Below, one piece after another: positions 6,255-53,284 of a stretch of DNA of 53,370 bases (the first letter of the stretch is position 1; every line of letters begins with the position of its first letter). The notes under the pieces were generated by a model. It was not told the origin of the DNA. It worked only from the letters and a program-made list of their open reading frames with translations, and searched no databases. The DNA comes from Eubacteriales bacterium (lineage in GTDB: Bacteria; Bacillota; Clostridia; Oscillospirales; CAG-272). A program made the translations under genes and the position numbers. The DNA is taken from NCBI GenBank assembly GCA_045133915.1, contig JBGUUX010000070.1:1-53370 (forward strand). The letters are read 5' to 3'.

Positions 6255-6266
6255 AGGACAGTATAT

Positions 6267-7439
6267 ATGATAAAGCTTTTAAGTTCTATCTTTATTAAGG
6301 ATAGGGATAATACAGGCGATCCCGCAGTAAGAACTGCATACGGAACCCTGTGCAGTATCTTTGGTATATTTCTCAATCTTCTGCTTTTTGCAGGTAAGCT
6401 TGCATGCGGTCTTATAAGCGGATCTATTGCAATAACCGCAGATTCATTTAACAACTTAGCCGATGCAGGCTCAAGCATCGTTACTCTTTTTGGTTTCAGA
6501 TTAGCAAACATGAAGCCCGACCCCGAGCATCCCTTCGGTCACGGCAGATTTGAGTATATCTCGGGTCTGGTTGTTTCCTTTGCTATACTTCTTATGGGAT
6601 TTGAGTTGGCAAAAAGCTCGGTGTCTGCTATTGCTAATCCCGAGCCGGTAGAGTTCTCCGTGCTTTCGCTTATTATCCTTGCAGTTTCGGTAGCCGTAAA
6701 GCTTTATATGGCATTCTATAACAGAGCCATAGGTAAAAAGATATCTTCTGCGGCAATGGATGCAACCGCTAAGGATAGCTTAAGCGATGCCGTATCTACA
6801 GGCGTTATCCTTGTTATCGCAATAGTAACACCCTATATTCCCTTTGCCATCGACGGTTGGGCCGGTCTTGTGGTATCCGCGCTTATCCTTTGGGCGGGTA
6901 TAAACTCGGTTAAGGATACCATTTCGCCTCTTCTCGGACAGAGCCCCGACAAGGAGTTTGTTTCTGATATAGAGAAGATAGTTATGAGCTATCCCAACGT
7001 GTCGGGTATACACGATCTTGTGGTACACGACTACGGTCCCGGAAGACTTATGATAAGTCTGCATGCCGAGGTGCCGGTATCTATGAATATCAACGTTGCC
7101 CACGATATGATCGACAATATCGAGGTGCATCTGACAAAGGAGCTTAACTGTCACGCCGTTATACATATGGACCCCGTTGACTACGACGATCCCAAGACCG
7201 TTGAGCTTCGTGTTAAGGTAAACGAGATAGTCAAGGGACTTTGCGGTAACGCATCTATTCATGATTTTCGCGTAGTGTACGGTAACACCCACACCAACCT
7301 TGTTTTTGACGTGGTGTTGCCCTTTGATACAGACTTTGGTGATAAAGATTTTATTTCAAAGGTAGAAAAGCGTGTCAAAGCATATGACGAAAACCTCAAC
7401 TGCGTAATACACATAGATAAAGATTATACCGGTCATTGA
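6267..7439 (+). CDS. cation diffusion facilitator (CDF) family metal efflux transporter
   Basis: 390 aa with multiple TM helices, the FNNLADAGSS and HPFGHGRFEY motifs typical of CDF proteins, and a C-terminal cytoplasmic domain. Confidence 0.85.
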   Translation: MIKLLSSIFIKDRDNTGDPAVRTAYGTLCSIFGIFLNLLLFAGKLACGLISGSIAITADSFNNLADAGSSIVTLFGFRLANMKPDPEHPFGHGRFEYISGLVVSFAILLMGFELAKSSVSAIANPEPVEFSVLSLIILAVSVAVKLYMAFYNRAIGKKISSAAMDATAKDSLSDAVSTGVILVIAIVTPYIPFAIDGWAGLVVSALILWAGINSVKDTISPLLGQSPDKEFVSDIEKIVMSYPNVSGIHDLVVHDYGPGRLMISLHAEVPVSMNINVAHDMIDNIEVHLTKELNCHAVIHMDPVDYDDPKTVELRVKVNEIVKGLCGNASIHDFRVVYGNTHTNLVFDVVLPFDTDFGDKDFISKVEKRVKAYDENLNCVIHIDKDYTGH

Positions 7440-7492
7440 TATTTTATAATAAGTGTGTTATAATATATCTATCAAAAAACAGGAGAAAAGCA

Positions 7493-8989
7493 ATGAAAAA
7501 GATTATTTCTGTTGTATTAGCTATGATCATGCTGATACTTTGCATCCCATCTTCCGCCGAAACGGTAAGTTTTCCCGACGTTAAGGAAAGCGCTTGGTAC
7601 TATGATGCAGTTACATACTGTGCGGGAAAGGGAATATTCAACGGCAACAAGGACGGCAGCTTTGCTCCCGCAAAGTCTATAACAAGAGCTGAATTTGTTG
7701 TAGCCCTTGCCAACTATTCCGGTGAGGATATTAGTGCCGAAGAATGTGACCGATTTACCGATATTAAGCCATCCCATTGGTTTTACAGCGCAGTAGCTTG
7801 GGCGGCAAATAAAGGTATCGTTTCAGGCACTTCTGAGACCACGTATTCTCCCTCAAAGCAGATAAGCCGTCAGGATCTCTGTCTTATGCTTATGAACTAC
7901 CTTAAATATAAAGGCATTGAGCTTGAGTCTGATATGTCAGCACCCTTTGCAGACGATGCAAAGATAGGCGCTTGGGCAAAGGATGCGGTATACGCTATCA
8001 AGAAAGCGGGTATCGTAGCAGGTATGGGCGAAAACAAGTTTGATCCCAGAGGTAACGCTACAAGAGCTCAGGTTGCACAGATGATGATGCAGTTTGATAA
8101 ATTTATGGAAAGCGCAGGCACTTCTCCTATGAAAGTTGAAAAAATTAAGATAACTATCCCAGGTGTAGAGGGCTCTGTCAAGTTTATGCATTTAAGCGAC
8201 AGCCATCTGACCCTCTTTGATGAGACCGACTCTGAAAAGGCGGTTGCAGAGATGACCGAAAGAGGAGCAATGTTTGATAAGCAGGTGGGCGACGGAATCA
8301 AACGCGAGGACAAGCTTGCCGGGTTCTATGCAATGGCTGAGGAAGAGGGCGTAGATGAGATCCTTCTTTCAGGTGATATAATCGACGCTCCCAGTAACGG
8401 TAATATGAAGTTCCTTGCCGATCTTGTAAGCAATTCCAAGATCCCTTCAATATACACTCTCGGTAATCACGACTGGTCTTTCTCTGATAACTATCAGGGT
8501 GAAAGAGACAAATACGTTCCCGGATTTGCCGAGATCTTCGGAACCATTGACCCCGATACCGAGGTTAAATATTGGGATGACGTTTGCAGCGTTTATGAGT
8601 ACGACGGCTTTGTTCTTGTAACCGTTGATAACAGTAACGATCAGGTACCTTCTGCGGCAACTTCTATTCTTAAGAGCTACGCAAAGTCAGGCACTCCTGT
8701 TATACTTATGCTTCACGTACCCGTAAGCTGCGAGAGCGCAGTTGCAGACGTAACAAATATGTGGGGCAGAGATATTGCTATAGGTTCTGCCGCTCTTAAC
8801 CCCAACGCATCAACAAAGCAGTTTGTAGAATTTCTCAGATCCAACGAGTCTACTGTTGTGGCAATCCTTGCAGGACATACACATTTAAGCCACGTAGACG
8901 ACGTAAGCCCCAACAATGATACAGTGCAGTACACCCTCGGAGCAACCTTTGAGGATTATGCAAGAATATTTGAAATAGTAGGTGAATGA
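7493..8989 (+). CDS. secreted SLH-domain (x3) protein fused to a calcineurin-like metallophosphoesterase
   Basis: Start trimmed to MKKIISVV (ATG 7493, AGGAGA upstream). Signal peptide present. Three SLH-like repeats (FPDVKESAWYYDAV, FTDIKPSHWFYSAV, FADDAKIGAWAKDAV). Phosphoesterase motifs LSDSH, SGDIID, GNHD and GHTH. Confidence 0.8.
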   Translation: MKKIISVVLAMIMLILCIPSSAETVSFPDVKESAWYYDAVTYCAGKGIFNGNKDGSFAPAKSITRAEFVVALANYSGEDISAEECDRFTDIKPSHWFYSAVAWAANKGIVSGTSETTYSPSKQISRQDLCLMLMNYLKYKGIELESDMSAPFADDAKIGAWAKDAVYAIKKAGIVAGMGENKFDPRGNATRAQVAQMMMQFDKFMESAGTSPMKVEKIKITIPGVEGSVKFMHLSDSHLTLFDETDSEKAVAEMTERGAMFDKQVGDGIKREDKLAGFYAMAEEEGVDEILLSGDIIDAPSNGNMKFLADLVSNSKIPSIYTLGNHDWSFSDNYQGERDKYVPGFAEIFGTIDPDTEVKYWDDVCSVYEYDGFVLVTVDNSNDQVPSAATSILKSYAKSGTPVILMLHVPVSCESAVADVTNMWGRDIAIGSAALNPNASTKQFVEFLRSNESTVVAILAGHTHLSHVDDVSPNNDTVQYTLGATFEDYARIFEIVGE

Positions 8990-25647: not shown

Positions 25648-25693
25648 GGATATATGTGTTATAATGTATTATCAAATTTGTAAAGGTGATACT

Positions 25694-26464
25694 ATGAAAA
25701 TTGCAGTTATAACAGGAGCATCCTCCGGCATAGGTAAGGAATTTGTCAAGCAGATAGACGCCCTTGAAGCCCTTGACGAGATATGGCTTATTGCCAGAAG
25801 AGAAGATAAACTGAAAGCGATAGCTTCCGAGCTTAAGAACAAGAGCAGAATCATCCCTCTTGATCTCTTGAGATCCGAAAGCTTTGACGCTTATAAAAAT
25901 ATGCTTAACGAAGATATAAACGTCAGATATCTAGTCAATGCCTCAGGCTTTGGCAATATGGGAGACTGGTCTGAGATATCAAACGACGCTCAGATGCAGA
26001 TGATAGATCTTAACGTCAAGGCGCTTGTCAGTATGACTAATATAACCATACCACATATGAAGAAGGGAAGTATGATACTGCAGATGGGTTCTGCTTCCGT
26101 GTTCAATCCCTTGCCTTATTTCAACATATATGCATCTACCAAGAGCTTTGTAAGACATTATTCAAGGGCTCTCCACGAGGAGCTTAAGCCTCTTGGTATC
26201 CACGTTACCGTTGTGTGTCCCGGCTGGGTACGTACCGAATTTTTTGATCATACAAATGACAGTAACGTAAGCTACTCGCCTAAGAACTATAAGCCTATGA
26301 CTGAGGCAAAGGACGTAGTACGCCGTGCACTGCGTCATGCAAAGCGAAATAAAGCCTTAAGCATCTACGGCTGGTTTACCAAAACACAGCATATATTAGG
26401 CAAGCTCCTGCCTCATAGCCTTATTATGAAAATGTGGAAGGGTATGCTAAAAGAGAATAAATAA
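25694..26464 (+). CDS. SDR-family short-chain dehydrogenase/reductase
   Basis: ATG 25694 (MKIAVITGASSGIGKEF, the TGxxxGIG motif) and the catalytic YxxxK (YASTK). Confidence 0.85.
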   Translation: MKIAVITGASSGIGKEFVKQIDALEALDEIWLIARREDKLKAIASELKNKSRIIPLDLLRSESFDAYKNMLNEDINVRYLVNASGFGNMGDWSEISNDAQMQMIDLNVKALVSMTNITIPHMKKGSMILQMGSASVFNPLPYFNIYASTKSFVRHYSRALHEELKPLGIHVTVVCPGWVRTEFFDHTNDSNVSYSPKNYKPMTEAKDVVRRALRHAKRNKALSIYGWFTKTQHILGKLLPHSLIMKMWKGMLKENK

Positions 26465-26490
26465 AAAGTCCACCTCGGTGGACTTTTATT
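26463..26490. terminator. bidirectional intrinsic terminator
   Basis: AAAAAGTCCACC-TC-GGTGGACTTTTATT. Confidence 0.8.
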
Positions 26491-26491
26491 T

Positions 26492-26566
26492 ATGTATAGG
26501 AATTTGTGTTGTTGCGTGTGCTAAGTAAACGTCGTTTACTTAGCCGCAGAGCAGGCAACTTGCCGC
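26492..26566 (-). repeat. stop-codon-abutting intergenic repeat element, copy E1
   Basis: The minus strand reads TAA-GCGGCAAGTTGCCTGC-TCTGCGG-CTAAGTAAACGACGTTTACTTAG-CACACGCAACAACACAAATTCCTATACAT. Near-identical segments occur in the copy at 31808-31894. Confidence 0.8.
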
Positions 26567-28003
26567 TTATTTCTTTTTCTTTGCATCCTTTGCAGACTTA
26601 GCAACGATAGAGCCAAGTGCAACGAGAGCAAATGCGTTGGGGATTACCATTAAGTAGTTAAAGAAGTCTGTAAGCTCCCATACGAGATCGTTCTTAAGAA
26701 CAGAACCGAGGAATATGAAAGCTACGGATACAACGGAGTATACAACAACCGCTACCTTTGCATTCTTCTTAAAGAGGTACTGAACGTTGATCTTACCAAA
26801 GAAGTTCCAGCTGATGATGGTAGAGAATGCGAAGAAGAGCAGACATACTGCGATAAAGATAGTACCTACGTCTTCCATACCGGAGGGAAGAGCGGAGCTG
26901 AATGCCTTCTGCATAGCATCAGTCTTGGAAACTATTGCTGCATCGCCGGAGGTAGCTGAGATATAATCAGCACCGAACTTACCTGCAAGGATGCCACCCT
27001 TAGCATAAAGGGAAGAGATAACGACGAGGGCTGTCATGGTGAGAACGACAAAGGTATCGATAAACACACCGATCATAGCAACAACACCCTGATCGTGAGG
27101 CTTCTCTACGTTAGCCATTGCATGGGCGTGAGGTGTAGAACCCATACCTGCTTCGTTGGAGAAGAGACCTCTCTTTGCACCCTGGCTTACAGCGGTCTTG
27201 ATTGCTATACCAACAGCACCGCCGACGAGAGCATCAGGCTTAAACGCGTACTTAAAGATCATACCGAAGGTCTCGGGAATCTGCTTGAAGTTACAACCGA
27301 GAACGATGAAACCGCCGATGAGAAAGAGAACTGCCATTACGGGAACAAGCTTCTCTGTAACGGATGCTATTCTCTGGATACCGCCGATGAAGATAAAGGC
27401 TGCAGCAGCGGTTACTATAAGACCGATAACCCACGTAGGAATTACGGGGAATGCGTTGTTAAAGGATTCTGCAATAGAGTTTGACTGAACCATAGAGCCC
27501 ATGAAGCCAAGTGCAAGTGTAATAGCAACGGCAAAGAATACTGCAAGGAATTTACCGAAGTTACCCTTGAAAGCTTCCTTAATATAGTATACGGGACCGC
27601 CGTGTACGGCGCCGTCTTCGTCAACTTCTCTGGTCTTCTGTGCGAGAATTGCCTCTGCATAGATGGTAGACATACCGAGAAATGCGATAACCCACATCCA
27701 GAAGATAGCACCGGGACCACCTACAAGGATAGCGCCGGAAGCACCTACTATATTACCTGTACCAACCTGAGCTGCAACTGCGGTAGCAAGAGCCTGGAAG
27801 GATGAAAGACCGGACTTGTTCTTTTTACCTCTGAGAGAGATGCCTCCAAATACTCGCTTAAGACCTTCGCCGAAGCAACGTACCTGAACAAAGCGTGTTC
27901 TGACGGTGAAGTAAAGACCTACACCGATGAGCAGGATTATAAGGATATAATCCGCCAGATAACTGTTGATAGTCGCAACTATCTTTAAAAGTGTTTCCTG
28001 CAT
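26567..28003 (-). CDS. alanine/glycine:cation symporter (AGCS family)
   Basis: About 478 aa and polytopic, with the AGCS motifs SSFQALATAVAAQVGTGNIVG and GLFSNEAGMGS. ATG 28003 follows GGAGGC, and the track's TTG at 28015 lies in the terminator T-run just upstream of that RBS. Confidence 0.9.
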   Translation of the reverse strand: MQETLLKIVATINSYLADYILIILLIGVGLYFTVRTRFVQVRCFGEGLKRVFGGISLRGKKNKSGLSSFQALATAVAAQVGTGNIVGASGAILVGGPGAIFWMWVIAFLGMSTIYAEAILAQKTREVDEDGAVHGGPVYYIKEAFKGNFGKFLAVFFAVAITLALGFMGSMVQSNSIAESFNNAFPVIPTWVIGLIVTAAAAFIFIGGIQRIASVTEKLVPVMAVLFLIGGFIVLGCNFKQIPETFGMIFKYAFKPDALVGGAVGIAIKTAVSQGAKRGLFSNEAGMGSTPHAHAMANVEKPHDQGVVAMIGVFIDTFVVLTMTALVVISSLYAKGGILAGKFGADYISATSGDAAIVSKTDAMQKAFSSALPSGMEDVGTIFIAVCLLFFAFSTIISWNFFGKINVQYLFKKNAKVAVVVYSVVSVAFIFLGSVLKNDLVWELTDFFNYLMVIPNAFALVALGSIVAKSAKDAKKKK

Positions 28004-28013
28004 AAATGCCTCC

Positions 28014-28500
28014 AAAAAAAATAAAAGTTGCTAATAATAGCAACTCCGGAAAAACAGCATATAATTCTACTATATACTAACTCTATCCTTTTGCCTGAGA
28101 GATTCGGATCTGATAATAATTATTACCGTCACCTTGCACCTTCGGCACTCAGTTTAAGTTGAGAAGATTCGAATTATCACGGTTTTATGCGGCTGATAAC
28201 TGCCATCTCATTGTCAGCGATCTAGTCAATATCGCCTATATTGCCGTCAATCGCTTCCGCAATCTGACAGCTATCAGCCCGCCTAAAACTGTATAGCACA
28301 TTCGGACGAGAGATTTTTGAGAAAGTTTAGTCGGCGAAGTCCGCAGGCTTACTTGGATGCAAGTCAAGGACGAGACGGCTGAAATAGCCTAAAATCTCCG
28401 TCCTAATGCGTGACAATTCGATTCTTCTCAACTTACGAGATTCTCCAGAGTTTCCTCCACCTTCAGTCATCCTAAAGGTTTCACAGGAATTATTAACTTG
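28014..28500 (-). promoter_or_regulatory. glycine riboswitch leader: one complete aptamer with a greatly expanded P2, plus an intrinsic terminator
   Basis: The minus strand carries CTCTGGAGAA (28450-28441), TGCCGAAGGTGCAA (28147-28134), AATCTCTCAGGCAAAAGGATAGAG (28104-28081), and the hairpin AGTTGCTATTATTAGCAACT (28045-28026) plus a U-run. The downstream gene class is a classic glycine-riboswitch target. Confidence 0.75.
28155..28435 (-). other. 281-nt structured insertion nested in riboswitch P2 (26-nt inverted arms plus a 229-nt multi-helix core)
   Basis: Arms 28155-28180 and 28410-28435 are complementary at 24 of 26 positions, plus one G:U on the minus strand. Internal helices pair 28189-28205 with 28265-28282 and 28304-28317 with 28391-28403. 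No ORF. Confidence 0.7.
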
Positions 28501-30205: not shown

Positions 30206-31693
30206 ATGAAAATGAAGAAATTAAGTGCAATTTTATTAACAGCGTGCATGCTCGTTACATCACTTGCTATGTTTGTAAACGCGAGCCCCCACGGTATCAT
30301 CGAAAACGATCCCGTTTCTGTTCCTACCGCAACTCCTACTGTTGACGGTGTGATCGATGCAGGTGACGGTTGGTCCGAACCCGCAAAGATGGACTACGAT
30401 ACCTGCGGCTTCTTCTGGCAGCAGAATCCTATGTCTTCTAAGGCTGATCTCTACTTCGCATACGACGAAGAGGGTCTCTACTATGCAGCAGACATTACCG
30501 AAGGTCTTGAGTGTGTACACGAGATCACCGGTGAGGATATGACCGGTAGAAACAAGTTCCTGTACTCCACAGGTGAAGACTGGATCGACGTAAACGCAGA
30601 TGATCCCACCGAGCATTACGGTTATGACGGCGACGTATTCGGTCTCCTCGTTGACCCCGCTGAGGGTATGCTCAACGGCGGTTTCTCCTCTGACTATACT
30701 CCTTGGTATCTCGTTGGTCTCTTTGAAGGCGAAAACGGTGACGTTGCCAAGATGTACAGACAGAAGATCAATCAGGGCGATATTACCGAAGAAGAGGGCG
30801 TTGAGGTTGCAGGTGCTAAGACCGAGAACGGTTGGCGCTTTGAAGCTAAGATTGCTTGGGATATCATCATTGCAGATATCGAAAGCATTACATACGGTGA
30901 TGTAGTTCTTACCGTTGACGATATTATCGCAAACGGCGCTATCTCCAAGGTAGCAGGTATGTATCAGGACAGATTCTATGATGAAGAAGCAGGCGAAGTT
31001 GCAACATGGGGCCGTTACGTAACCGCTCCCGAGTCTCAGGCAGACGGTACACCCGGTCATATGGGTTCCGGTGACCTTGTTTGCTCCTGCGGTATCACTC
31101 TCGTAGCAGGCAGCGGCGTTTATGAAAATCCTTTCACCGACGTTAAGGATAACCACTGGTTTGCAGAGTCTGTTAAGTACTGTGTACAGAAGGGTTATGC
31201 TTCCGGTATGACCGCTACAACATTTGTTCCTAACGGTATACTTACCAGAGCTCAGTTCCTTACTCTCCTTGCTAAGCTTGACGGTGTTGATCTTGAGCAG
31301 TATGCTACAACAGACGCAGGTTTTGAAGACGTTAAGGTTGCTCATTGGTACAACAAGGTTGTATGCTGGGCGGTTGAAAAGGAACTTACTGCAGGTCTTA
31401 CACCTACTACATTTGGTCCTAACAATTCCGTAACCAGAGCGCAGGTTGCAAGATTCCTTTACGTATATTCCGAGAAGAACGGTATTGACGTTTCCGGCAA
31501 GGCTGATATCTCCGTATATCCCGATGCATCTAAGGTTGCTAACTGGGCACAGGATGCTATAGCATGGGCGGTTGACGCAGGCGTTATCGGCGGTGTTAAG
31601 AAGGACGACGTTAACTATCTTGAGCCCAACGGTACAGCAACAAGAGCTCAGGCTACCGTAATGTTCAAGGCTTTTGACGCATTTAGAAAATAA
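30206..31693 (+). CDS. secreted protein with an N-terminal carbohydrate-binding-like (CBM9/DOMON-like, tentative) domain and three C-terminal SLH repeats
   Basis: Signal peptide. SLH repeats FTDVKDNHWFAESVKY, FEDVKVAHWYNKVVCW and YPDASKVANWAQDAIAW, each followed by the TRAQ motif. Confidence 0.75.
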   Translation: MKMKKLSAILLTACMLVTSLAMFVNASPHGIIENDPVSVPTATPTVDGVIDAGDGWSEPAKMDYDTCGFFWQQNPMSSKADLYFAYDEEGLYYAADITEGLECVHEITGEDMTGRNKFLYSTGEDWIDVNADDPTEHYGYDGDVFGLLVDPAEGMLNGGFSSDYTPWYLVGLFEGENGDVAKMYRQKINQGDITEEEGVEVAGAKTENGWRFEAKIAWDIIIADIESITYGDVVLTVDDIIANGAISKVAGMYQDRFYDEEAGEVATWGRYVTAPESQADGTPGHMGSGDLVCSCGITLVAGSGVYENPFTDVKDNHWFAESVKYCVQKGYASGMTATTFVPNGILTRAQFLTLLAKLDGVDLEQYATTDAGFEDVKVAHWYNKVVCWAVEKELTAGLTPTTFGPNNSVTRAQVARFLYVYSEKNGIDVSGKADISVYPDASKVANWAQDAIAWAVDAGVIGGVKKDDVNYLEPNGTATRAQATVMFKAFDAFRK

Positions 31694-31770
31694 GCAGCGC
31701 GGCGCTGCATCCAAACTGCGCTCCATTGCTTTGTGATTCAATTCACACAGAATATCGAATCCTAAACTAT
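31694..31770 (+). repeat. stop-codon-abutting repeat element, copy E3 (divergent; outer boundary approximate)
   Basis: TAA-GCAGCGCGGCGCTGC-ATCCAAACTGCGCTCC...TTCAATTCACACAGAAT. It shares ACTGCGCT and TTCAATTCACAC(A/C)GAAT with the copy at 43305-43383. Confidence 0.6.
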
Positions 31771-31775
31771 AAAAC

Positions 31776-31806
31776 ACAAAAAGGTTCGCTTCGGCGAACC
31801 TTTTTC
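31776..31806. terminator. bidirectional intrinsic terminator
   Basis: AAAAAGGTTCGC-TTCG-GCGAACCTTTTT. Confidence 0.9.
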
Positions 31807-31807
31807 A

Positions 31808-31894
31808 ATGTATAGGAATTTGCGATGTGGCGTGTGATAAGTAATCGTTGGTTACTTAGCCTCATAGCGCAGTTCGGGTGGGGCAACTTGCCCC
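31808..31894 (-). repeat. stop-codon-abutting repeat element, copy E2
   Basis: The minus strand reads TAG-GGGCAAGTTGCCCC-ACCCGAACTGCGCTATGAGG-CTAAGTAACCAACGATTACTTAT-CACACGCCACATCGCAAATTCCTATACAT. The hairpin shares one nucleotide with the stop codon. Confidence 0.8.
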
Positions 31895-33069
31895 TAGTTA
31901 ATTTTACGTGCTTCACAATAGTAACGTTTGCTTTCGGCCTCACCCATAGAGAAGGTCTTACGGGGAAGTGATCCCTTGCTTGAAACAAAGGGGAAGAGCT
32001 CGCCCTTATCCATTCCATCAAAGATAAGACCGATACGGCCGTCTTCTTTACAGAGCGAAAGTGTAGACTCGATGCCGTGGATATAGTCGCATACCACCTC
32101 GGGATTTTCCTTGATATAGTTGTCGATAAAGGGTTGCAGCGAACCTACGGTAAGTCCGCTTGTATAAACCTCACCTTCGTTATTCTTTGTATACCACTTG
32201 ACGGTCTTGGGACCCTCGGTAAACTCGGCGTTCAGTTTTGTTATAAAATCCTCTGTATCAACGTTAAAGAGCACACGGTATATAGGCTCAAACTCAAGAG
32301 CCTCGTCGTGGACATTTACAACCTCTACAAGAGCATATCTGTTAAGCTCGTTGGGGGCGCTCAGATAACAGGTACGGGCAGTAGCAAGAGAGTGATTTCC
32401 GTCGCCAACTGCAAAGAGCAGAGGTTCATCACCTGCTTTTTCCTTAAGAGAGGATATAGCATTAAGTATGTTATCCTGAATTTCCTTTGGAATGAGTGAG
32501 CCTTTAAGATGTCCACCGCCCTGCATGAGCTCAAAATCGTAGAGTACGGTAAGCTCTGCATTTTTCAAAGGTTCGATAACTGTTCTTTCGATATCGTCTA
32601 TAAGGAGCATAATATGCGGCAGCTCCAAGGGGGCATTGCGGCGAACCTCAACACGGGGTGGAATGCGTTCAAGCACGGTACCTTCGGTTGCTCTGATAAG
32701 CGATTTTGACCCGACTGAAAAATCGTATTCCTTAAGGTCAACTGCGCCTATGATACCGTAGCGAACCTTACCCTTGGGCAGAGTTCGTTCCACAAATATC
32801 ATTGCATCTTTATATTCCTTAAAAATACCGTCATTAAGGTAATCGGTCATTGTACGATTGATAGCGTCGGTTTTTTCTGCGTTATCCTTTGATAAAAAGG
32901 CTTCGGGAAGTACCATATTAAAGGCAGAAGGTGCATCGCCGACTATTTCTGCGGTTTTATGCCAGTACTCAGGTTCACTTGTAAACTGATCACAGGCCAC
33001 GACAGACCATTTGTTATATTCACATTTAGGCAGAAGTATATCTGCGGGATAAAAGGCTGTATTATTCAT
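31894..33069 (-). CDS. DUF1015-like conserved hypothetical protein
   Basis: 391 aa. The layout and the motifs VVACDQFTSEPEYW, IRATEGTVLERIPPRVEVRR and AVGDGNHSLATAR resemble DUF1015 as I recall it. Not verified. Confidence 0.45.
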   Translation of the reverse strand: MNNTAFYPADILLPKCEYNKWSVVACDQFTSEPEYWHKTAEIVGDAPSAFNMVLPEAFLSKDNAEKTDAINRTMTDYLNDGIFKEYKDAMIFVERTLPKGKVRYGIIGAVDLKEYDFSVGSKSLIRATEGTVLERIPPRVEVRRNAPLELPHIMLLIDDIERTVIEPLKNAELTVLYDFELMQGGGHLKGSLIPKEIQDNILNAISSLKEKAGDEPLLFAVGDGNHSLATARTCYLSAPNELNRYALVEVVNVHDEALEFEPIYRVLFNVDTEDFITKLNAEFTEGPKTVKWYTKNNEGEVYTSGLTVGSLQPFIDNYIKENPEVVCDYIHGIESTLSLCKEDGRIGLIFDGMDKGELFPFVSSKGSLPRKTFSMGEAESKRYYCEARKIN

Positions 33070-34410: not shown

Positions 34411-34438
34411 GCAGTCATATGACTGCTCATTATTTTTA
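34408..34438. terminator. bidirectional intrinsic terminator overlapping both stop codons
   Basis: TGAGCAGTCA-TA-TGACTGCTCA followed by TTATTTTTA. Confidence 0.8.
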
Positions 34439-37400
34439 TATGTTTATTACGTAGTAGTTATAGGATTCGTCGTCATACTGTACACAGAAAGTATATATAC
34501 CTGATTTGAGATCCTTTACGGCTATAACGCCGTCAACTATCTTGTCAGCCTTGAGCGCTTTTGAACCCTTAGCCGCCTTGATCTGGCTCGACGTTGTATA
34601 TTCCCCCATAGCGTATCTTATCATCACCATTCCGTCAAGCTCACCAAAGATAACTGTATTATCTTTCTGCTCAACGGTAGGAAGCTTCTTTGTTACGTTA
34701 TAGTGATATACCTTCTGATATCCGTTGTTATATTCAACGATTATTGTGACCATACCTTCTTCTCTGTACTGTATTGTATAAGGGTCTTTACCCTTGATTG
34801 CAGTCTTTGCAGAGAAATTACGTATAGTGTCGGTAGCCTTAAGCTCCTTAACAGTATTCCATTTGCCGTATGCGGTACGGATGACCTTTACGTCAGGGAG
34901 ATTGGATACAGTTACCTGCAAGCCGTTGACGGTAAATACAGGCTCGTCTACTACAAGAGTTTCGTGGAACACCTTATAACTGCCGTCATTGTATCTGATA
35001 AGCACAGTATGTACACCGGGCTCGTATACGGTATAGTTGTATTCGTGCTTGCCCTGTATCTTGTTTACACCGGCGCTGAATATATAACCGTTTTGCTTAA
35101 TCTCGGAATAACTGTTAAATTCACCCTTAGCAATAAAGAAGTCTTTTACATCATAGAGGTTATGTATTGTAATCTTAACACCGTAAGCTGAAACGTAGGG
35201 TGTGAAGTTAGTTACGTCCATAGCCTTCAGGAAGGTAGTTCCGTCAATCATTCTTACCCATACGGTATAGTAACCGCCGTTGGGAATGTTATATACAAAG
35301 TCAGAGCCAACTATTCGCTTTTCTATGAAAGACTTGTCAAGATTTACACAGTCGGCAGCGTTACGGATAGATGCTGCTGTTTCGTGTACACCGCTTGCAT
35401 ATCTGATATGGTCTATGTCAGATGCGTTTGTCATGGTAACGGTGTAGTTATCAACCGTGATCTCTGTGTTGAGTACGGGTATCTCGTAGATATCTCTGTT
35501 TGTGGCTGTAAGCACAAACTGAGAGAACTTGTCTACCTCGACTGTTACGGTATCCTCATTTGTGTCAAGATCGGCTATTACAGATACCTCACCCTTATGC
35601 TCGTGGAGGATAAAGTAGTGTTTGTAGCCACGGTGCGCTTCGGGAATATCAATTGTTATTCTCAGCTTACCCATAGCCGATGTCTCTTTTGAAATATCGG
35701 TAATATTGGAAGTAACGCCGTCGGTAGTCTTGGTAAGGGTTATATCATAGTACTTAAGTATAGTTTTGTTTTCAGCTGCATCAAGGATCTCCTGAGCAAC
35801 AAACTCGTCATAAGTATTGATACCGTCGTTATCTATTGTGGGAGCTTCTATCTCGTTTGCGGTAACTTCAAATGAGACGTCTTTGCTGTTGGCTATATCC
35901 TCGCTTGTTACGATAAGACCGTTCATGGAAAGGTCAAAACCGTCGGTAGAAGTAAAGCTACAACCGCAGAGAAGAGCACACATAGACTCAAGCTTTGTAA
36001 CGTACAGCTCTGACAGATAAAGTCTTTCAGACTCGGTAAGGGAGTCGTATATTGCCTTTTCACGGGAAACTCTTGCTCTGTAGGCTTCGGCTTCTGCCGA
36101 TGTGGAGCAGGTGGGAACCTCGTCAAAGAACGCCTTTTCAATATTTGTTATCTTAACGTTCTTTTCGATTTCGATAGTACTGTCACCGTATACCGCACCG
36201 TTAGATATGACCACTGTAGCATAGCCAACGCCACCGTCGTCGGTAGTTGCTCTTACGGTGAATATACCTTCACCAACGTAGCCAAAGTGGTACTTACCGT
36301 TGGAGAGGGTAGTCATTCTTGCACGCTCACGTCCGCTCTGATAGTAGAGTACAACCTCTGCTTCGGTAGTCTTGCCGTCACGGTATACTGTACCGCGGAT
36401 GTTAGACATATCGTTTTCGGCTTCCTGCATAGTCAGTGCACCGACGTTGGAGACACCTTCACCCGTAACCTCAACGATCGTATAGGTTCTAAGGTTATAT
36501 ATCTTGTTATAACCAAGGCCGCTGGGACGGTATTCGTTTGTAGTGCAGGAGAGTATATAGGTTCCTGCGGGTACACCCTCTATCGTAAAGCATCCGTTTT
36601 CGTCACTGTTAAGGGATGCTACGTTTCTACGGTCAGAGAGTCTTGCCAGACCTATCATAGCATAGGGTCTGAGCTTAACCGTAGTGTCTCTGTTTTCTAT
36701 GTATGTAAAACCTGTGATACTGCCGCAGGGCTGCTTTGTGCCCTCTACGTATATATCGGTCAGGTCACCGCCGGAAACGGTGATGTCCTTGAGCTCTGTA
36801 CCGAACTCATTTTCTATTTTGAGTATATAGTCGCCTGTGGGAATATTGTCAAAGCTGAAGCTGCCATCCTCGGGAACAACACTATCAATAATATTACCCT
36901 CGGTATCTGTTATCGTAACTTTGGTGACGTCATCGGATACGTTACCGCTGACAGTGAAGCCCTTGTTGAGAACAAGCGACGTATCGCCTGTAAGGATAAC
37001 GTCAAAGGCGTCGAGACGCTTTACATTTACCTTGGTAAAGTACTGACCCTCGGGGGCTTGTGCACGGATAGTGTAGCTTCCTACCTCGGCATAGGTGAGG
37101 ACGTATCTGCCGTCGGAACCGGTAATGACACTTTCCTTTACAACACCGTCGTTATAGAGGATGTCTACCTTTACTCCTACGGCAGGTGTACCGTCGGTAT
37201 ACTTAACGCTGCCTACGATGCTTGTACCGTAAGCAATATCGGGATTGCCTGTCTTACGCAGTACGAAGTGAAGCAGGTTATATGTACGGCACCACTCCAG
37301 AGACTCGGTATTGTCGTATACCAGCTTGATGGTGTTGGCAGAGAAGGCGTCGTCAGCAAGATAACGTATGCTTGCGGGGATAAGAACCATCTTGATAGAA

Positions 37401-40400
37401 TCACAATCTGCAAATACTCTGGTGCTTATCTGCTCGATGCCCTCGCCTATGGTAACCTTACTGATGCTTGTACCCTCAAAGGCGGAGTTAAAGAGGTTGT
37501 ATACACTTCCGGGGATATGTATCTCGGTTATAGAGCTACATCCGTAGAATGCCCTTTCGCCTATATGCTCAAGCCCCTCGGGAAGAACTACGCCTGTGAG
37601 CTTGAGACAGTTTGTGAAGGCATAGTTCTCTATGCGACGCAGACCATCGTGCATTATAGCGGTTTCCATCTTGTCGCATTTTACAAAGGCGTTCTGACCG
37701 ATACAGGTAACACCCTTGCCGAGGTCGATATATTTTAGGTTGCGACAGTAATAGAAGGTATTATCCTTTATCTCTGTAACTGTGTCGGGGATGACGATAG
37801 ACTCTATCTTTGAATTATAGAATGCGTTGTCACCAAGATAGGTGAGAGAGTCGGGCATATCTATCTCGGCAAACGCCGTAGCATAGAAGGCATATGAACC
37901 GATATATTCAACGCTGTCGGGAATGGTGATGCTTGTAAGGGAGCTACATCCTCTGAAGGAGTTATCTCCTATCTTGCGCACTCCGTCACTTAATATGACC
38001 GATTTAAGAGATTTTGCACCGTCAAATGTGCCTCTTATCTCAACCACGGGGGCATCTCCTATATAAGCGGGCACGGTGACCTCGGTAGCCACACCGTCAA
38101 ACCTAAAGGCAATAGCCTCACCGTTGTATATAAAGTAGGATATACCGTCAACAGTGACGATCTCGATGGCAGAGTCGGCGTTGCTTATAATGTACATATA
38201 GCCGTTATCCTCGGCAAAGCTTTGAGCGTAGCTGCCTTCCGCAACGATAAGGATAGCAGTGGCGGGAATAGCACTGGATGAAATTGTGGTAGTAGAGGCA
38301 GGAATCACTATAGTAGCAAGACTGCCACAGGAATTAAATGCATTAGAGCTTATTTGGTATACGCCTTCCTCGATTGTTACTTTTTCGAGAGAGTAACACT
38401 CTGCGAAAGCATAGTTATATATGTTACCAATGCTACCGGGGATCGTTACCTCTGTGAGAGAGGTGCAACGGTAGAATGCATAGCTGGTCATAAACACACC
38501 GTCGGGGTTTTCGGGAAGTCTTACCTCTTTAAGCAAGCTGCACTGTGAGAACGCATACTGACCTATAGATGTGATATTATCGCCTAAGTAGATAGACTCA
38601 AGGGCAGTACAACGGTTAAAGGTAGACATACCGATACTTGTAATACCTTCAGAGAGCTTTACACTCTTAAGGGCGGTACAGTTGGTGAATGCAGAGGTAC
38701 CTAAGGTGGTTACGGTATCAGGCATTTCAACACTTAAAAGTCCGTCGCAGCCGTAGAATGCCTCGGAGCCGATGTAGGTAAGTCCCTCGGGCAGCTCGAT
38801 GCCGGTGAGCCCGTCACAGTTATAGAAGGCATCGTCGCCTATATATTCGATGCTTGCAGACATCTTGATCTCACTTAAGTTATAACATCCCGAGAAGGTA
38901 GCGGCACCGATAGTAGTAACGCTGTCGGGAATTGTAACCTTCTTAAGAGAAGATGTGTTACTGAAGCATCCGCGAAGCTCGGTTACGGGGTAGCCGTTGA
39001 CCTCAGCGGGGATATTGAGCTCGGTCTGATTCTTTTCCGACTTGAATGCTATTGCATGATCCTCGATGATACAGTAAGTAACACCGTCGATTACGGGGAA
39101 CACGGGATCTGTGCCGTCATAAATAACGTATAGAAGTCCGTTATCTCTTGCAATCTTATGGGCATTGGAATCCTGATATACAAGAAGGAAGGTAGTGGAA
39201 GGGAAGCTTCCGTCATAGAAGTATCCGATATCCTTGGGCATACGTACCATCTCAAGCTTATCGCAATCACGGAACGCCTGATACATAACGCCGTCAACAC
39301 CTTCACCGAGGGTAACCTCGGCAAGCTCATAACAGCTGTCAAAGGCATTGTTGCCGACACCCTCGACCGTTCCGGGGATGGTTACGCTTTTAAGGCCCTT
39401 ACAGTAGCCGAAGCTGTAGTAGGTAAGATATTTAAGTCCCTCGGGTAAAACAACGTTTTCAAGGGCGTGACAAGCGTTAAAGGCATAGTTGTCGATCTGT
39501 TCGAGCTTAGGTGAGAAGATAAGCTCTGTCATAGCATCACATCTGGCGAATGCATAGTAGCCTACGTAGGTTACGTTAGCACCCATATATACAGACTTAA
39601 GCTTACGGCATTCCTGGAAGGTAGCGTACTTGATTTCGCTTACGTTGTCTGATATACGAACCGATGTTATTCCGGAATACTGGAACGCATAGGATTCTAT
39701 CTCTGTTACCGAGTCGGGGATATAGATATCAGCTTCTCCAATGCTTGCAAAAGCGTAAGATCCGATATAGGTTACGGTCTCGGGAATGTTTACCTCAGTA
39801 AGAGCGCTGCATCCGTAGAATGCTTCGTCCTCAATACGGCGAAGACCCTCGGGCAGAGTTACTTTGGTAAGAGTAGTTGCGTTCTTAAAGGCTCCGTGTA
39901 TTTCGGTTACGGGATAACCCTGTATCGTTGCGGGAACGGTAACCTCGCTTACAGAACCGTCAAAGCCGTTAAGATAAGCCTGACCGTTATAGAGGTAATA
40001 GGTAAGACAGCCCTCGGTTACTGTGATGGGGGTAGCGGAGGTGGTCATAAGCTCGTAGCTTAAAGAGTTCTCCATAGCGTAGATATGAGCCTCAGAGCCC
40101 TCGTCACACCATATCTTAAGGTCAGAGCACAGGGCAAATGCCTCGGGTGCTATAGCGGTAACACCCTCGTAGAGAACGATAGAGTTCATAGCATCACAGC
40201 TATAGAAGGCGCCCGCACCAATGGTGGTAAGCATATGGGTGGTTACGATACAAACAAGGTTATCTGCATCATAGAACGCTTCGTCACCTATCTCGGTGAC
40301 GGTAATAGGAAGGGCAACGCTGTTGATAACGTCGTTATCCTTAAATGCCCCTTCGGCAACCTTTGTAACCTTAAGACCTTCTATCTCCGAAGGCACGTAT

Positions 40401-40564
40401 ACATCGGTATCGTTACCGTTATACTTTGTTACAGCAATGCCGTCACCGTATGCTTCGTATTCCCATTCAGTTGCAGCCTCACTCTCTTCTGCGCTTACAG
40501 AAAAGGGAATACCGCATATTAAAAATGAAAACACTAAAATTAAAGACAATATTTTTTTAAACAT
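34436..40564 (-). CDS. giant secreted surface protein (2042 aa): three BspA-type leucine-rich-repeat modules, CarboxypepD_reg-like beta-sandwiches, and four C-terminal ~85-aa repeats
   Basis: ATG 40564 with GGAGAA (MFKKILSLILVFSFLICGIPFSVSAEE signal peptide). Dozens of repeats follow the pattern xVTxIGxxAFxxCxxLxxVxIP. There are three paralogous module heads (GYPVTEIHGAF, GYPVTELRGCF, DAPVVEIRGTF). No LPXTG, SLH or C-terminal TM. Confidence 0.85.
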   Translation of the reverse strand: MFKKILSLILVFSFLICGIPFSVSAEESEAATEWEYEAYGDGIAVTKYNGNDTDVYVPSEIEGLKVTKVAEGAFKDNDVINSVALPITVTEIGDEAFYDADNLVCIVTTHMLTTIGAGAFYSCDAMNSIVLYEGVTAIAPEAFALCSDLKIWCDEGSEAHIYAMENSLSYELMTTSATPITVTEGCLTYYLYNGQAYLNGFDGSVSEVTVPATIQGYPVTEIHGAFKNATTLTKVTLPEGLRRIEDEAFYGCSALTEVNIPETVTYIGSYAFASIGEADIYIPDSVTEIESYAFQYSGITSVRISDNVSEIKYATFQECRKLKSVYMGANVTYVGYYAFARCDAMTELIFSPKLEQIDNYAFNACHALENVVLPEGLKYLTYYSFGYCKGLKSVTIPGTVEGVGNNAFDSCYELAEVTLGEGVDGVMYQAFRDCDKLEMVRMPKDIGYFYDGSFPSTTFLLVYQDSNAHKIARDNGLLYVIYDGTDPVFPVIDGVTYCIIEDHAIAFKSEKNQTELNIPAEVNGYPVTELRGCFSNTSSLKKVTIPDSVTTIGAATFSGCYNLSEIKMSASIEYIGDDAFYNCDGLTGIELPEGLTYIGSEAFYGCDGLLSVEMPDTVTTLGTSAFTNCTALKSVKLSEGITSIGMSTFNRCTALESIYLGDNITSIGQYAFSQCSLLKEVRLPENPDGVFMTSYAFYRCTSLTEVTIPGSIGNIYNYAFAECYSLEKVTIEEGVYQISSNAFNSCGSLATIVIPASTTTISSSAIPATAILIVAEGSYAQSFAEDNGYMYIISNADSAIEIVTVDGISYFIYNGEAIAFRFDGVATEVTVPAYIGDAPVVEIRGTFDGAKSLKSVILSDGVRKIGDNSFRGCSSLTSITIPDSVEYIGSYAFYATAFAEIDMPDSLTYLGDNAFYNSKIESIVIPDTVTEIKDNTFYYCRNLKYIDLGKGVTCIGQNAFVKCDKMETAIMHDGLRRIENYAFTNCLKLTGVVLPEGLEHIGERAFYGCSSITEIHIPGSVYNLFNSAFEGTSISKVTIGEGIEQISTRVFADCDSIKMVLIPASIRYLADDAFSANTIKLVYDNTESLEWCRTYNLLHFVLRKTGNPDIAYGTSIVGSVKYTDGTPAVGVKVDILYNDGVVKESVITGSDGRYVLTYAEVGSYTIRAQAPEGQYFTKVNVKRLDAFDVILTGDTSLVLNKGFTVSGNVSDDVTKVTITDTEGNIIDSVVPEDGSFSFDNIPTGDYILKIENEFGTELKDITVSGGDLTDIYVEGTKQPCGSITGFTYIENRDTTVKLRPYAMIGLARLSDRRNVASLNSDENGCFTIEGVPAGTYILSCTTNEYRPSGLGYNKIYNLRTYTIVEVTGEGVSNVGALTMQEAENDMSNIRGTVYRDGKTTEAEVVLYYQSGRERARMTTLSNGKYHFGYVGEGIFTVRATTDDGGVGYATVVISNGAVYGDSTIEIEKNVKITNIEKAFFDEVPTCSTSAEAEAYRARVSREKAIYDSLTESERLYLSELYVTKLESMCALLCGCSFTSTDGFDLSMNGLIVTSEDIANSKDVSFEVTANEIEAPTIDNDGINTYDEFVAQEILDAAENKTILKYYDITLTKTTDGVTSNITDISKETSAMGKLRITIDIPEAHRGYKHYFILHEHKGEVSVIADLDTNEDTVTVEVDKFSQFVLTATNRDIYEIPVLNTEITVDNYTVTMTNASDIDHIRYASGVHETAASIRNAADCVNLDKSFIEKRIVGSDFVYNIPNGGYYTVWVRMIDGTTFLKAMDVTNFTPYVSAYGVKITIHNLYDVKDFFIAKGEFNSYSEIKQNGYIFSAGVNKIQGKHEYNYTVYEPGVHTVLIRYNDGSYKVFHETLVVDEPVFTVNGLQVTVSNLPDVKVIRTAYGKWNTVKELKATDTIRNFSAKTAIKGKDPYTIQYREEGMVTIIVEYNNGYQKVYHYNVTKKLPTVEQKDNTVIFGELDGMVMIRYAMGEYTTSSQIKAAKGSKALKADKIVDGVIAVKDLKSGIYTFCVQYDDESYNYYVINI

Positions 40565-40587
40565 ATATTCTCCTATAGTCACAAAGA

Positions 40588-40612
40588 GGCTTGATAAGAA
40601 TATTATCAAGCC
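40588..40612 (-). terminator. hairpin after valS (weak U-tract)
   Basis: The minus strand reads GGCTTGATA-ATATTCT-TATCAAGCC followed by TCTTTGTG. It lies 18 nt after the valS stop and 23 nt before the LRR gene ATG. Confidence 0.45.
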
Positions 40613-43304: not shown

Positions 43305-43383
43305 GGGGCAAGTTGCCTCACCCAGACTGCGCTCGTAAGCTCGGCGTTTCAATTCACACCGAATGAAGCAATTTCATATGTAT
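43305..43383 (+). repeat. repeat element copy E4, inside the valS 5' UTR and inverted relative to the transcript
   Basis: GGGGCAAGTTGCCTC-ACCCAGACTGCGCTCGTAAGC...TTCAATTCACACCGAATGAAGCAATTTCATATGTAT, alignable with the copy at 31808-31894 read on the minus strand. Confidence 0.75.
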
Positions 43384-43385
43384 TT

Positions 43386-43595
43386 AAAAAAGCACCCTGA
43401 TGAAAACATCAGGGCGCCGTAAAACGCTGTACCACCTGAATTCACCCTATACGGGCGCACTCTTTCCTTGCTGTAACGGGCAGGACCCGTTGACTCATGG
43501 ACAACTTCTCAGGGGACATAACGGATGCTCGCAGCCAAGGCATCCTTCTCTGGAATTACATCTTGTCCCGATACTACTCCCAATCAACGCCAATA
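43386..43595 (-). promoter_or_regulatory. T-box riboswitch leader, valine specifier GUU
   Basis: Minus strand features: AGTA box (GGGAGTAGTA), AGAGA, the GGGACA/TGTCCC stem flanking the specifier loop CTGAGAA-GTT-G (codon at 43505-43503), the T-box AATTCAGGTGGTACAGCG, and the terminator GGCGCCCTGATG-TTTT-CATCAGGGTGC plus a U-run (43418-43386). Confidence 0.85.
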
Positions 43596-43601
43596 TATAA
43601 T

Positions 43602-46936: not shown

Positions 46937-47113
46937 TTACTTGTACTTACGCTTTCTAGCAGCTTCAGACTTCTTCTTACGCTTAACGCTAGGCTTTTCG
47001 TAATGCTCTCTCTTACGGAGCTCTGCGAGTACACCGCTTCTTGCGCACTGTCTCTTGAATCTACGAAGAGCGCTGTCTAAAGATTCATTATCCTTTACTT
47101 TAATTTCTGCCAT
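46937..47113 (-). CDS. rpsU: 30S ribosomal protein S21
   Basis: [29 protein letters not shown]...; ATG 47113 follows GAGGGGAGGG. Confidence 0.95.
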
Positions 47114-47163: not shown

Positions 47164-47192
47164 ATTATACACTAACTTTTAAATTATGTCAA
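47164..47192 (-). promoter_or_regulatory. candidate rpsU promoter (TTGACA, 17 nt spacer, TATAAT)
   Basis: Reverse strand: consensus -35 at 47192-47187 and consensus -10 at 47169-47164. Confidence 0.65.
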
Positions 47193-47220
47193 TAGGTTTA
47201 TTGAAATAAAATTGATATAA

Positions 47221-47295
47221 TTGTACAAAAATTACATTTTGTGTGATTTGTAGAACTGAGCTCTCCTGCACAGTATGGCAGGGGCGAATCGCCCC
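47221..47295 (-). repeat. stop-codon-abutting repeat element, copy E5 (GGGGCG subfamily)
   Basis: The minus strand reads TAA-GGGGCGATTCGCCCC-TGCCATACTGTGCA...TACAAATCACACAAAATG. Closely parallels the copy at 53285-53361. Confidence 0.75.
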
Positions 47296-50110: not shown

Positions 50111-50138
50111 TTCTTTCTCCGGAATAAAAATTATTTAA

Positions 50139-50166
50139 TGCAGAATGCAGAGTGCAGAATGCAGAA
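50139..50166. repeat. four tandem heptamers TGCAGAA/TGCAGAG/TGCAGAA/TGCAGAA
   Basis: Read directly from the sequence. Located 29-56 nt upstream of the rsfS ATG. Confidence 0.9.
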
Positions 50167-53275: not shown

Positions 53276-53284
53276 AAATACTAT

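Follow-up and report, generated by a model that had tools for sequence, protein, structure and literature searches.

Six short, similar stretches of non-coding DNA, five of them at gene ends, lie in the 53,370 nt analyzed here (hereafter the window), which is contig JBGUUX010000070.1 of the Eubacteriales bacterium (CAG-272) assembly GCA_045133915.1. The question raised by this locus is whether these stretches, which an earlier note on the DNA had described as transcribed in the 3' untranslated regions (UTRs) of unrelated genes, are a control signal or sequences that have moved into those places. A covariance model made from 24 copies found the same six copies in the window that the earlier note had described and no more, with scores of 63-92 bits, bearing out their places while refining their limits, and the six stretches align as one family. 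Chance is excluded, since ACTGYGC-N15-45-CACAC has five occurrences in the window where 0.18 would be expected, and none of 100 shuffled sequences reached five. With copies from other genomes added, the consensus was extended to [AA]GGGGCAAGTTGCCCC-ACCCAAACTGCGCTC-[variable hairpin 20-30 nt]-TCACACGCCACAACGCAATTTCCTATAT(G)TT, giving a non-coding repeat unit of approximately 80-97 bp and approximately 45% GC. The order of modules that had been described, namely a GC hairpin, ACTG(C/T)GC, a variable second hairpin, CACAC and an AT-rich tail, is correct, and middle hairpins fall into a small set of discrete types, a short type and a long type among them. Here "forward" denotes the strand on which the GC hairpin (hairpin 1) comes first, which is also the strand read in the earlier note. 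One side of the element is GGGGCAAGTTGCCCC..ACCCAAACTGCGC and the other ..CAATTTCCTATAT, and the junctions of filled and empty sites set its ends at 5'-GGGGC ... CTATA(N)2-6-3'. No named family had been recognized in the repeat from its letters; an Rfam search of the whole window at the gathering score likewise gave no family for it, only a tRNA and a glycine riboswitch, a search of positions 31650-31950 at E <= 10 gave terminator-like chance hits and nothing else, and BLAST against plasmid and phage collections gave no match.

In the first copy, E1 (26492-26566, minus strand; 62.9 bits), the middle hairpin, CTAAGTAAACG-A-CGTTTACTTAG, is of the long type, and hairpin 1 is followed by an internal deletion of 13 nt. 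This copy is located between the TAA of a Na/Ala symporter gene (26567-28015, minus strand) and a bidirectional intrinsic terminator at 26464-26487, a 10-pair stem called on both strands, which is common to the symporter gene and an SDR gene (25664-26464, plus strand) and is faced by the tail of E1. E2 (31808-31894, minus strand; 92.4 bits) is the nearest of the window copies to the family consensus and abuts the end of a DUF1015 gene (31894-33069, minus strand), with the TAG across the junction made up of TA from the gene and G from the element. E3 (31694-31771, plus strand; 66.8 bits), which has a short-type middle, comes directly after the TAA of an SLH-domain gene (30206-31693, plus strand). 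Between the convergent SLH and DUF1015 genes lies a second bidirectional terminator (31778-31805), AAAAAGGTTCGC-TTCG-GCGAACCTTTTT, flanked by E3 and E2 with both tails pointing at its hairpin, so that one copy is possible on each side of such a terminator; this hairpin is kept in the relatives L036, L037 and L040. E4 (43305-43385, plus strand; 81 bits) is antisense to valS and has no adjoining stop codon; on one side of it is the T-run of the T-box terminator of valS, and on the other the ribosome-binding site of that gene. The valS T-box region spans 43386-43596 on the minus strand (leader 43407-43596; terminator hairpin and T-run 43386-43418) and scores 83.9 bits against RF00230 (E 7.6e-19), slightly under the gathering score of 93. 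E5 (47215-47295, minus strand; 62.8 bits), with the hairpin GGGGCGAWKCGCCCC, is found directly after the TAA of leuS (47296-49752, minus strand) and upstream of the rpsU promoter. It belongs to the same subfamily as E6 (53277-53361, minus strand; 69.3 bits), which is in sense orientation inside an operon, between the TAA of the preceding gene, which is ftsY-like in relatives, and the start codon (ATG) of a Ham1-family gene (52661-53275, minus strand). No terminator hairpin was found near E5 or E6.

That the elements begin at stop codons, as had been claimed, is true of five of the six window copies (E1, E2, E3, E5 and E6), the exception being E4 in the valS leader. TAA stands immediately before the hairpin in E1, E3, E5 and E6, and the genes that end at window copies encode a Na/Ala symporter, an SLH-domain protein, a DUF1015 protein, LeuRS and the product of one unseen gene. 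Contact with the stop codon favors the view taken in the earlier note, that the element is transcribed as a 3' UTR. Carried further, this view would make the repeat a cis-acting RNA element, transcribed hairpin first and kept by selection, with possible roles as a barrier to 3' exonucleases, a processing site or a tRNA-like minihelix (hairpin plus NNCCA). Further points in its favor are that at 11 of 21 sites a co-oriented gene ends no more than 18 nt before hairpin 1 and has its own terminator after the tail, and that hairpin 1 covaries (98.5% of cells paired, with compensatory changes in three of five pairs). A position between stop codon and terminator does imply co-transcription, as a 3' UTR or an operon spacer, and to this extent, for five window copies and for those 11 sites, the 3'-UTR reading stood. 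Contact with the stop codon, however, results from where the element lands and does not signify a function in the 3' UTR.

The landing site was characterized from the flanks. The 5' flank ends in AA at 19 of 21 sites, and the orientation of the element relative to the A/T tract is fixed, with the hairpin-1 end straight after ..AA. An A-run and GC hairpin were present 2-16 nt past the tail at 14 of 20 independent sites, as compared with 5.1% of random non-ORF oriented positions (binomial p = 2e-14). Seen from the other strand, the element is positioned directly 3' of the T-tract of an intrinsic terminator. The terminator hairpins beyond the tails have no sequence relationship to one another, not even where two copies are >90% alike in their cores, and they are thus part of the target and not of the element; they are not obligatory in the target, since E5 and E6 have none nearby. 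Stop codons are touched because TAA usually falls within the A-tract that precedes the terminator in low-GC genomes. At seven sites (E4, L010/L016, L012/L019, L007, L008, L021 and L023) the element has the reverse orientation and lies just behind a terminator, and the seven sites at which copies are antisense to, or downstream of, the adjacent transcription units argue against a 3'-UTR function. Two of the insertions behind terminators occurred independently behind those of T-boxes, one at valS in the window and one at a PALP+ACT threonine-dehydratase-like (ilvA-like) gene (L010/L016). The remaining sites are A-rich spacers, either within operons or near a start codon (E6, the L002/L003 atpB-atpE copy, L009 and L022) or after a stop codon (E5).

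In order to compare filled and empty orthologous sites, the valS neighborhoods of relatives whose valS protein is 98, 97, 94, 94 and 88% identical were aligned with the window. The E4 site is empty in L036, L037, L038 and L039, where T-box terminator, T-run and ribosome-binding site are contiguous, while the valS leaders of L040 and L041 hold other inserts that are unrelated to the repeat. The E5 site after the leuS TAA is empty in L036, L038 and L039, and the E6 site in the ftsY-like/Ham1 spacer is empty in L038 and L039, with the L038 genes only 1 nt apart (GAGGAATAA-T-ATG). At the DUF1015 gene end, the E2 site is empty in L036/L037, which read ..AAATAA, then CAAC, then the terminator, and filled in L040, where the junction is identical and the interior different. 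The E3 site has an orthologous copy of approximately 93% identity in L040 and a copy with a different middle and tail in L036/L037. Over the syntenic stretch there are four copies in the window, two in L040, one in L036 and none in L038, L039 or L041. The absence of E2, E4, E5 and E6 from relatives that are 88-98% identical in valS protein marks the element as an insertion, and these four absences point to recent insertion rather than to a conserved regulatory element. They also count against the 3'-UTR view, as does the atpB|atpE spacer, which is empty in L042 (95%) and L044 (88%) and holds an unrelated repeat in L043 and L045. This spacer and the valS leader are hot spots, empty in some relatives and occupied by unrelated repeats in others. 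Formally, precise deletion instead of insertion could account for any single site.

From these patterns of presence and absence we infer mobility, and the explanation that we think probable is a non-autonomous mobile DNA repeat of approximately 80-97 bp, comparable to SPRITE and BOX, with a choice of site that resembles that of group IIC introns.

The structural signals are not on the strand read in the earlier note: a G·U-containing helix, the lower folding energy and the hairpin with its T-run are all on the opposite strand. A T-rich run comes after hairpin 1 on that reverse strand in approximately 17 of 24 copies, and terminator-like calls (hairpin 1 plus T-run) were obtained for E1, E5 and the L012 units, while on the forward strand, where the sequence after hairpin 1 is ACCCAAAC, it does not have the form of an intrinsic terminator. 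Reverse-strand folding is 4.5 kcal/mol more stable (29 copies, p = 3e-5), a difference that is due in part to G/U-rich composition. The two most invariant motifs of the element, GUGU (the complement of CACAC) and GCGC, can pair on the reverse strand only, in a helix with two G·U pairs that is formed in 26 of 26 copies. Three variants of this helix were seen and all preserve pairing, with U·G changed to U-A in E5 and L011 and to C-G in L040b; GUGA/UCAC takes the place of this closing helix in a divergent subfamily. Such strand-specific pairing is what would be expected if one strand alone were recognized, as RNA or as DNA with G·T pairs, and does not fit a forward-strand 3'-UTR structure, since the sole helix common to all copies needs opposite-strand G·U pairs and the forward strand folds worse. 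Taken with the empty sites, we consider the 3'-UTR element an unlikely explanation.

Several other structures and signals were tried and rejected. A 10-bp helix, AAAUUGCGUU/AGCGCAGUUU, has 78% of its cells paired and competes with the universal GUGU/GCGC helix. An H-type pseudoknot in short-type copies (ACTGC/GCAGT plus TTTGT/ACAAA) is confined to canonical copies and lost in E4-E6. A small reverse-strand ORF (Met-Trp-Arg-Val...) is disrupted by changes in the length of the middle that are not multiples of 3 and that introduce stop codons. A sigma-70-like promoter in the tail (ATCACA-N16-18-TATAxx), flagged once, is inconsistent across copies and would fire into the terminator, and comparison by eye with SigH, sigma-54 and sporulation-sigma motifs gave no convincing match. 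Kinship of the GGGUGG segment with T-boxes was dismissed, as the element is not hit by the T-box model.

Some copies are arranged in tandem head-to-tail arrays: L012 has three 94-bp units, the orthologous L019 site has two, and L024 has two, with GCC-TTTTTTT-AAC at the junction between units. Because hairpin 1 and its T's re-create the preferred target, further insertion together with unequal crossing-over could explain these arrays. Decayed and internally deleted copies are also present. We looked for separate head or tail segments that might be the ends of a longer autonomous element and found only full, deleted and decayed copies in approximately 260 kb of related sequence. In certain orthologous copies the junctions and an unusual hairpin 1 are kept but the type of middle hairpin has changed; this is so for E2 and L040a, for E3 and its L036 counterpart, and for the third L012 unit and the second L019 unit. 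We read these swaps as recombination or conversion between copies.

The features of the reverse strand raise the alternative that the repeats are small RNA genes on that strand, each giving an RNA of approximately 75-85 nt that ends at hairpin 1 and its U-tract and is often antisense to the 3' end of a convergent gene. The T-rich run behind hairpin 1, the terminator-like calls, the conserved G·U helix and better folding energy of that strand, and the placement of several copies alone between a terminator and the next promoter are all consistent with such genes. Yet no promoter was found for them, the scans giving only the promoters of neighboring genes. The element begins 3-10 nt past the T-run of an unrelated terminator, which leaves no space for -35 and -10 boxes, and units in arrays are separated by T7 alone. 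Moreover, the T's behind hairpin 1 are target sequence, and in E5 are even coding sequence, and presence or absence in close relatives is unlike a conserved sRNA regulon. We regard small RNA genes as very improbable, more so than a 3'-UTR element.

A host-recruited terminator or insulator, spread or retained as back-up termination against read-through and convergent transcription, would also account for the terminator-like calls on the reverse strand and for copies just behind existing terminators and between convergent genes, and a parallel suggestion has been made for SPRITE (PMC3049150). The orientation of copies within operons bears on this. All four copies that precede a co-oriented ribosome-binding site and start codon (E6, L002/L003, L009 and L022) are forward; in three of the four a co-oriented gene is documented to end upstream, while L009 has no called ORF on its hairpin-1 side. 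If the reverse orientation terminated transcription, the restriction to forward copies would be explained, and it is consistent with real terminator activity in reversed copies. However, termination needs only approximately 15 of the 85-95 nt, leaving the conserved core and the tail unexplained, and two copies lie between a T-box leader and its gene (valS and the ilvA-like gene), where termination would be harmful. On the valS strand, hairpin 1 of E4 carries an A·C mismatch (GAGGC/GCCCC), and this mismatch ahead of an essential gene would be consistent with selection against termination. Occurrence is also patchy in close relatives. We judge recruitment of this kind improbable as the explanation of the family, a shade less so than small RNA genes; it is compatible with a mobile element and no replacement for it.

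Conservation of individual copies was considered as evidence for selection. In the atpB-atpE spacer, L002 and L003 are 100% identical over approximately 175 nt that include the copy, as compared with 79-91% in the flanking coding sequence, and this had seemed to favor a function in the 3' UTR. Purifying selection on this copy is weakened as an explanation by the empty or differently filled orthologous sites in relatives, which make the tract look imported rather than selected, and a short import by homologous recombination would be the simpler reading. The L010/L016 copy is 94-95% identical, against approximately 90% for coding sequence and about equal to the adjoining T-box, which leaves some room for constraint. 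Both of these copies are above neutral-site conservation, for which recombination may be the explanation, as selection would be also. We infer that the copies are for the most part neutral passengers of 3' UTRs; expression may be altered by a few of them, for example by E4 in the leader of valS and by the copy within the T-box leader of the ilvA-like gene.

How might such a repeat move? It has no terminal inverted repeats, its ends, GGGGCAAGTTGCCCC.. and ..CAATTTCCTATATGTT, being without complementarity. The longest word shared between a copy's own flanks averaged 6.2 nt versus 5.6 nt for mismatched flanks (18 copies, p = 0.05, a value driven by one 16-nt case), and no duplication was seen when the E6 and E2 junctions were compared with empty sites; at E4 an extra 4-5 T are possible, though ambiguous. 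Target-site duplication was accordingly rejected, candidate pairs such as TTAAAAAA/TTAAAAAA being no better than those of mismatched flanks. The lack of inverted repeats and duplications, together with G·U pairing that is specific to one strand, suggests that the intermediate is single-stranded, whether DNA or RNA. The sites show that entry is into A/T tracts in a fixed orientation, with the hairpin-1 end after ..AA and the tail (..CAATTTCCTATAT) facing the A-run. For a mobile repeat, we propose that hairpin 1 and the T's would rebuild a terminator-like site on the reverse strand; that copies would recombine among themselves, swapping the middle hairpin module; and that movement would be brought about in trans by a separate enzyme. 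A Pfam search of the 29 window ORFs gave no transposase, reverse transcriptase or recombinase. A more specific proposal, which we advance only as a possibility and think rather doubtful, is that the element of approximately 90 nt is moved by a mechanism that recognizes intrinsic terminators or oligo-T tracts by way of a single-stranded intermediate, and homes like a group IIC intron without the ribozyme. A HUH-type enzyme, a reverse transcriptase or another enzyme would then drive homing, and the structure recognized would be the terminal hairpin together with the invariant G·U helix of GUGU and GCGC, and the same process would perhaps cover two other repeat families at the same hot spots.

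Among described elements, the closest in kind is SPRITE of S. pneumoniae, which was compared by its published description, so that the likeness is one of kind only. SPRITE is approximately 105 bp long and terminator-like with AAAA/TTTT ends, is found preferentially at the 3' ends of genes and in the spacers of convergent pairs, has no matching IS and no known duplication, and has been read as a mobile repeat possibly co-opted as a terminator (PMC3049150). Both repeats are approximately 100 bp, non-coding and restricted in species, with a hairpin and T-rich tract, A/T ends and a location near gene 3' ends and between convergent genes, and for neither is there a matching IS or an established target duplication; the features of this type found in the present repeat are its terminator-like calls, its A/T flanks and the 11 of 21 sites that lie within 18 nt of a gene end. 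They differ in that SPRITE is 28% GC with an 18-bp duplex, while the repeat described here is approximately 45% GC, begins or ends in a GC hairpin of only 5-6 bp, and has a core that is conserved and single-stranded and a middle hairpin that can be swapped. They differ also in that empty sites were found for this repeat, whereas SPRITE offered none. The pneumococcal BOX elements (boxA-boxB(n)-boxC) are likewise modular with a variable middle, intergenic and co-transcribed, and one BOX forms a composite with T-box riboswitches (PMC3049150), which recalls the two copies in T-box leaders. In contrast to this repeat, BOX has terminal inverted repeats, target duplications and a variable number of boxB; here the ends are dissimilar and the middle module varies in type, not in number.

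In its choice of site the repeat resembles group IIC introns, which insert after terminator motifs (PMC1702495). As in those introns, insertion is behind an intrinsic terminator and in the same orientation when viewed on the structured strand (14 of 20 sites). However, a group IIC intron is a ribozyme longer than 600 nt, usually with a reverse transcriptase gene inside it, whereas the repeat is approximately 90 nt. Neither the 5' GUGYG nor domain V or domain VI of group II introns was found in it, and no Rfam intron was hit at the gathering score or at E <= 10.

Like REP/BIME and elements derived from IS200/IS605, the repeat is a small extragenic hairpin sequence that is often in 3' UTRs and clustered, lacks terminal inverted repeats and target duplication, and has strand-specific imperfect hairpins. 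Hairpins of that sort would be anticipated if transposition were of the single-strand (HUH) type. IS200/IS605 has similar hairpins at its left and right ends, whereas the two hairpins of this repeat are dissimilar and one is terminal. In place of the fixed 4-5-nt target of IS200/IS605 there is only ..AA, at 19 of 21 sites, and the six window copies are of mixed orientation. REP/BIME elements are palindromes of 20-40 nt with a GTAG/CGTC tag that often form inverted doublets (PMC3733652), while the units here are 80-97 nt, have no tag and no doublets, and are arrayed as head-to-tail direct repeats; membership in REP/BIME was rejected because the tag is missing. No gene for a RAYT (Y1 HUH transposase) was seen in the window. 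MITEs such as RUP, Correia/nemis and bcr1 are also short, structured, non-coding and patchy, with empty and filled sites. Their defining marks are inverted repeats at the termini and a target duplication of fixed length, 5-bp direct repeats in the case of bcr1 (PMC3184786), and since this repeat has neither, it was not assigned to them. An integron attC site (R'' RYYYAAC, R' GTTRRRY) was likewise rejected, as there is a single ACCCAAAC that lacks an inverted partner on its strand, and there are no cassettes.

Outside the window, approximately 25 further copies were found, all of them, among everything searched, in related ruminant-gut Clostridia metagenome-assembled genomes (MAGs). A scan of 185,579 species-representative genomes gave true relatives of the repeat in RGIG1713, RGIG1815, RGIG7194, SGB_1607 and SGB_6839 only, the remaining hits being GC-rich chance matches. 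Divergent relatives also exist that have the hairpin followed by ACC(C/T)..., another middle and ..CACACG. A pattern scan of JGI metagenomes gave seven hits, all GC-rich chance matches, and a scan of viral contigs gave two, both by chance; a protein-word search with the element translated in three frames, as in read-through ORFs or arrays, gave no hits. By valS, SGB_6839 and RGIG1815 are 98% and 97% identical to the window organism, and the nearest named relative is Candidatus Colimorpha enterica, at approximately 73%; no record matched the window's valS or symporter protein exactly. The repeat is limited to Clostridia of the ruminant gut, all within a narrow and uncultured clade.

The repeat is thus not a new gene-control signal but a new family of small interspersed, probably selfish, bacterial repeats, of a kind that is already familiar and with a target preference that is informative. 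For the annotation of gut MAGs it provides a defined repeat that can be masked or labeled, so that it is not confused with an sRNA, a riboswitch or a terminator. It also identifies the hot spots of insertion in this clade, namely the spacers between stop codon and terminator, the positions behind T-box terminators, and short operon spacers, which have been struck repeatedly by at least three unrelated small repeats. Presence and absence among genomes that are 88-98% identical in valS supply strain-level markers, and also natural experiments in gene expression, for example a terminator-like hairpin, with a weakening mismatch, placed between a T-box and the essential valS. The mobilizing enzyme, if found, may prove to be an insertion system directed to terminators or T-tracts.

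A second repeat besides the studied element, which we call family C, was very abundant, with ~30 matches in ~340 kb of sequence. Family C has three to six tandem heptamers whose unit varies by site and is mostly AATNNNN (units seen were AATGCAG, AATTCGG, AATGCAA, AATTCTC and AATTACG), and 3' of the heptamers there follow AATTA(A/T)GG.GG, a long hairpin and then CCTCCATTA. These period-7 triplet arrays are reminiscent of HutP-type protein-binding sites. Family C was placed directly after stop codons and to either side of terminators. Examples, beyond which further sites exist, lie at 50137-50215 of the window and, in loci from related ruminant-gut Clostridia MAGs (positions local to each locus), at L002 1316-1410, L003 3583-3660, L010 4816-4900 and 5034-5061, L044 7224-7441 and L045 519-756, as well as at 2137-2164 and 2766-2850 of two valS neighborhoods of close relatives, L036 and L040, respectively. 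The LytR-RsfS spacer, which holds family C in the window, is 209 nt there versus 9 nt in L038, another valS neighborhood.

A third repeat, family B, is ~110 nt long (CCTCCCTTGCCTAAAGGGAGG ... GGTGGAGGGATAT) and shares its hot spots with the studied element; these sites are empty in some relatives and filled in others. It was found at the valS T-box-leader site of L041 (3678-3752) and in the atpB|atpE spacer of both L043 (10680-10800) and L045 (10690-10800).

In the window, the valS T-box leader itself (43407-43596, minus strand) was missed by the default Rfam scan because it scored 83.9 bits, below the gathering score of 93. The Na/Ala symporter gene, at whose stop codon E1 (one of the window copies of the studied element) starts, has a glycine riboswitch aptamer upstream of it, at 28073-28181 on the minus strand (RF00504, 40.1 bits). 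With leuS on one side and the Na/Ca exchanger gene on the other, rpsU (S21) lies at about 46937-47113 on the minus strand; at 58 aa it falls below the 100-aa minimum of the ORF list. The rpsU promoter, a perfect TTGACA-17-TATAAT, is at 47164-47192 (minus strand), and the copy E5 sits between it and the leuS stop.

Next to valS in L040, from a 98%-identical relative, is a D5_N/DUF5906 primase-like gene (5871-8036), whereas the window has at the matching position a gene for a 2057-aa BspA-type LRR protein (34436-40609); the difference points to other mobile DNA, or to rearrangement, in this region. Downstream of a two-unit array in L024, a repeat cluster (4640-4790) is made up of short inverted and direct repeats containing TCGATAT, plus GC hairpins (..tcgatatatttgcatttggcaaattcgatatg..).

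A copy of the studied element in L022 (2650-2790) is without the normal tail and has on its two sides a 16-nt direct repeat, AAAAATCTATAAGGGG, into which the initial G's of hairpin 1 fall. The copy resembles a junction formed through microhomology or template switching more than it does a standard insertion. At 16300-16530 of L045 (minus strand) there are two divergent units in tandem, and one and the same terminator hairpin, CCTCCCTTTCGGGAGG, comes after each of them; here the duplication seems to have covered both unit and terminator.
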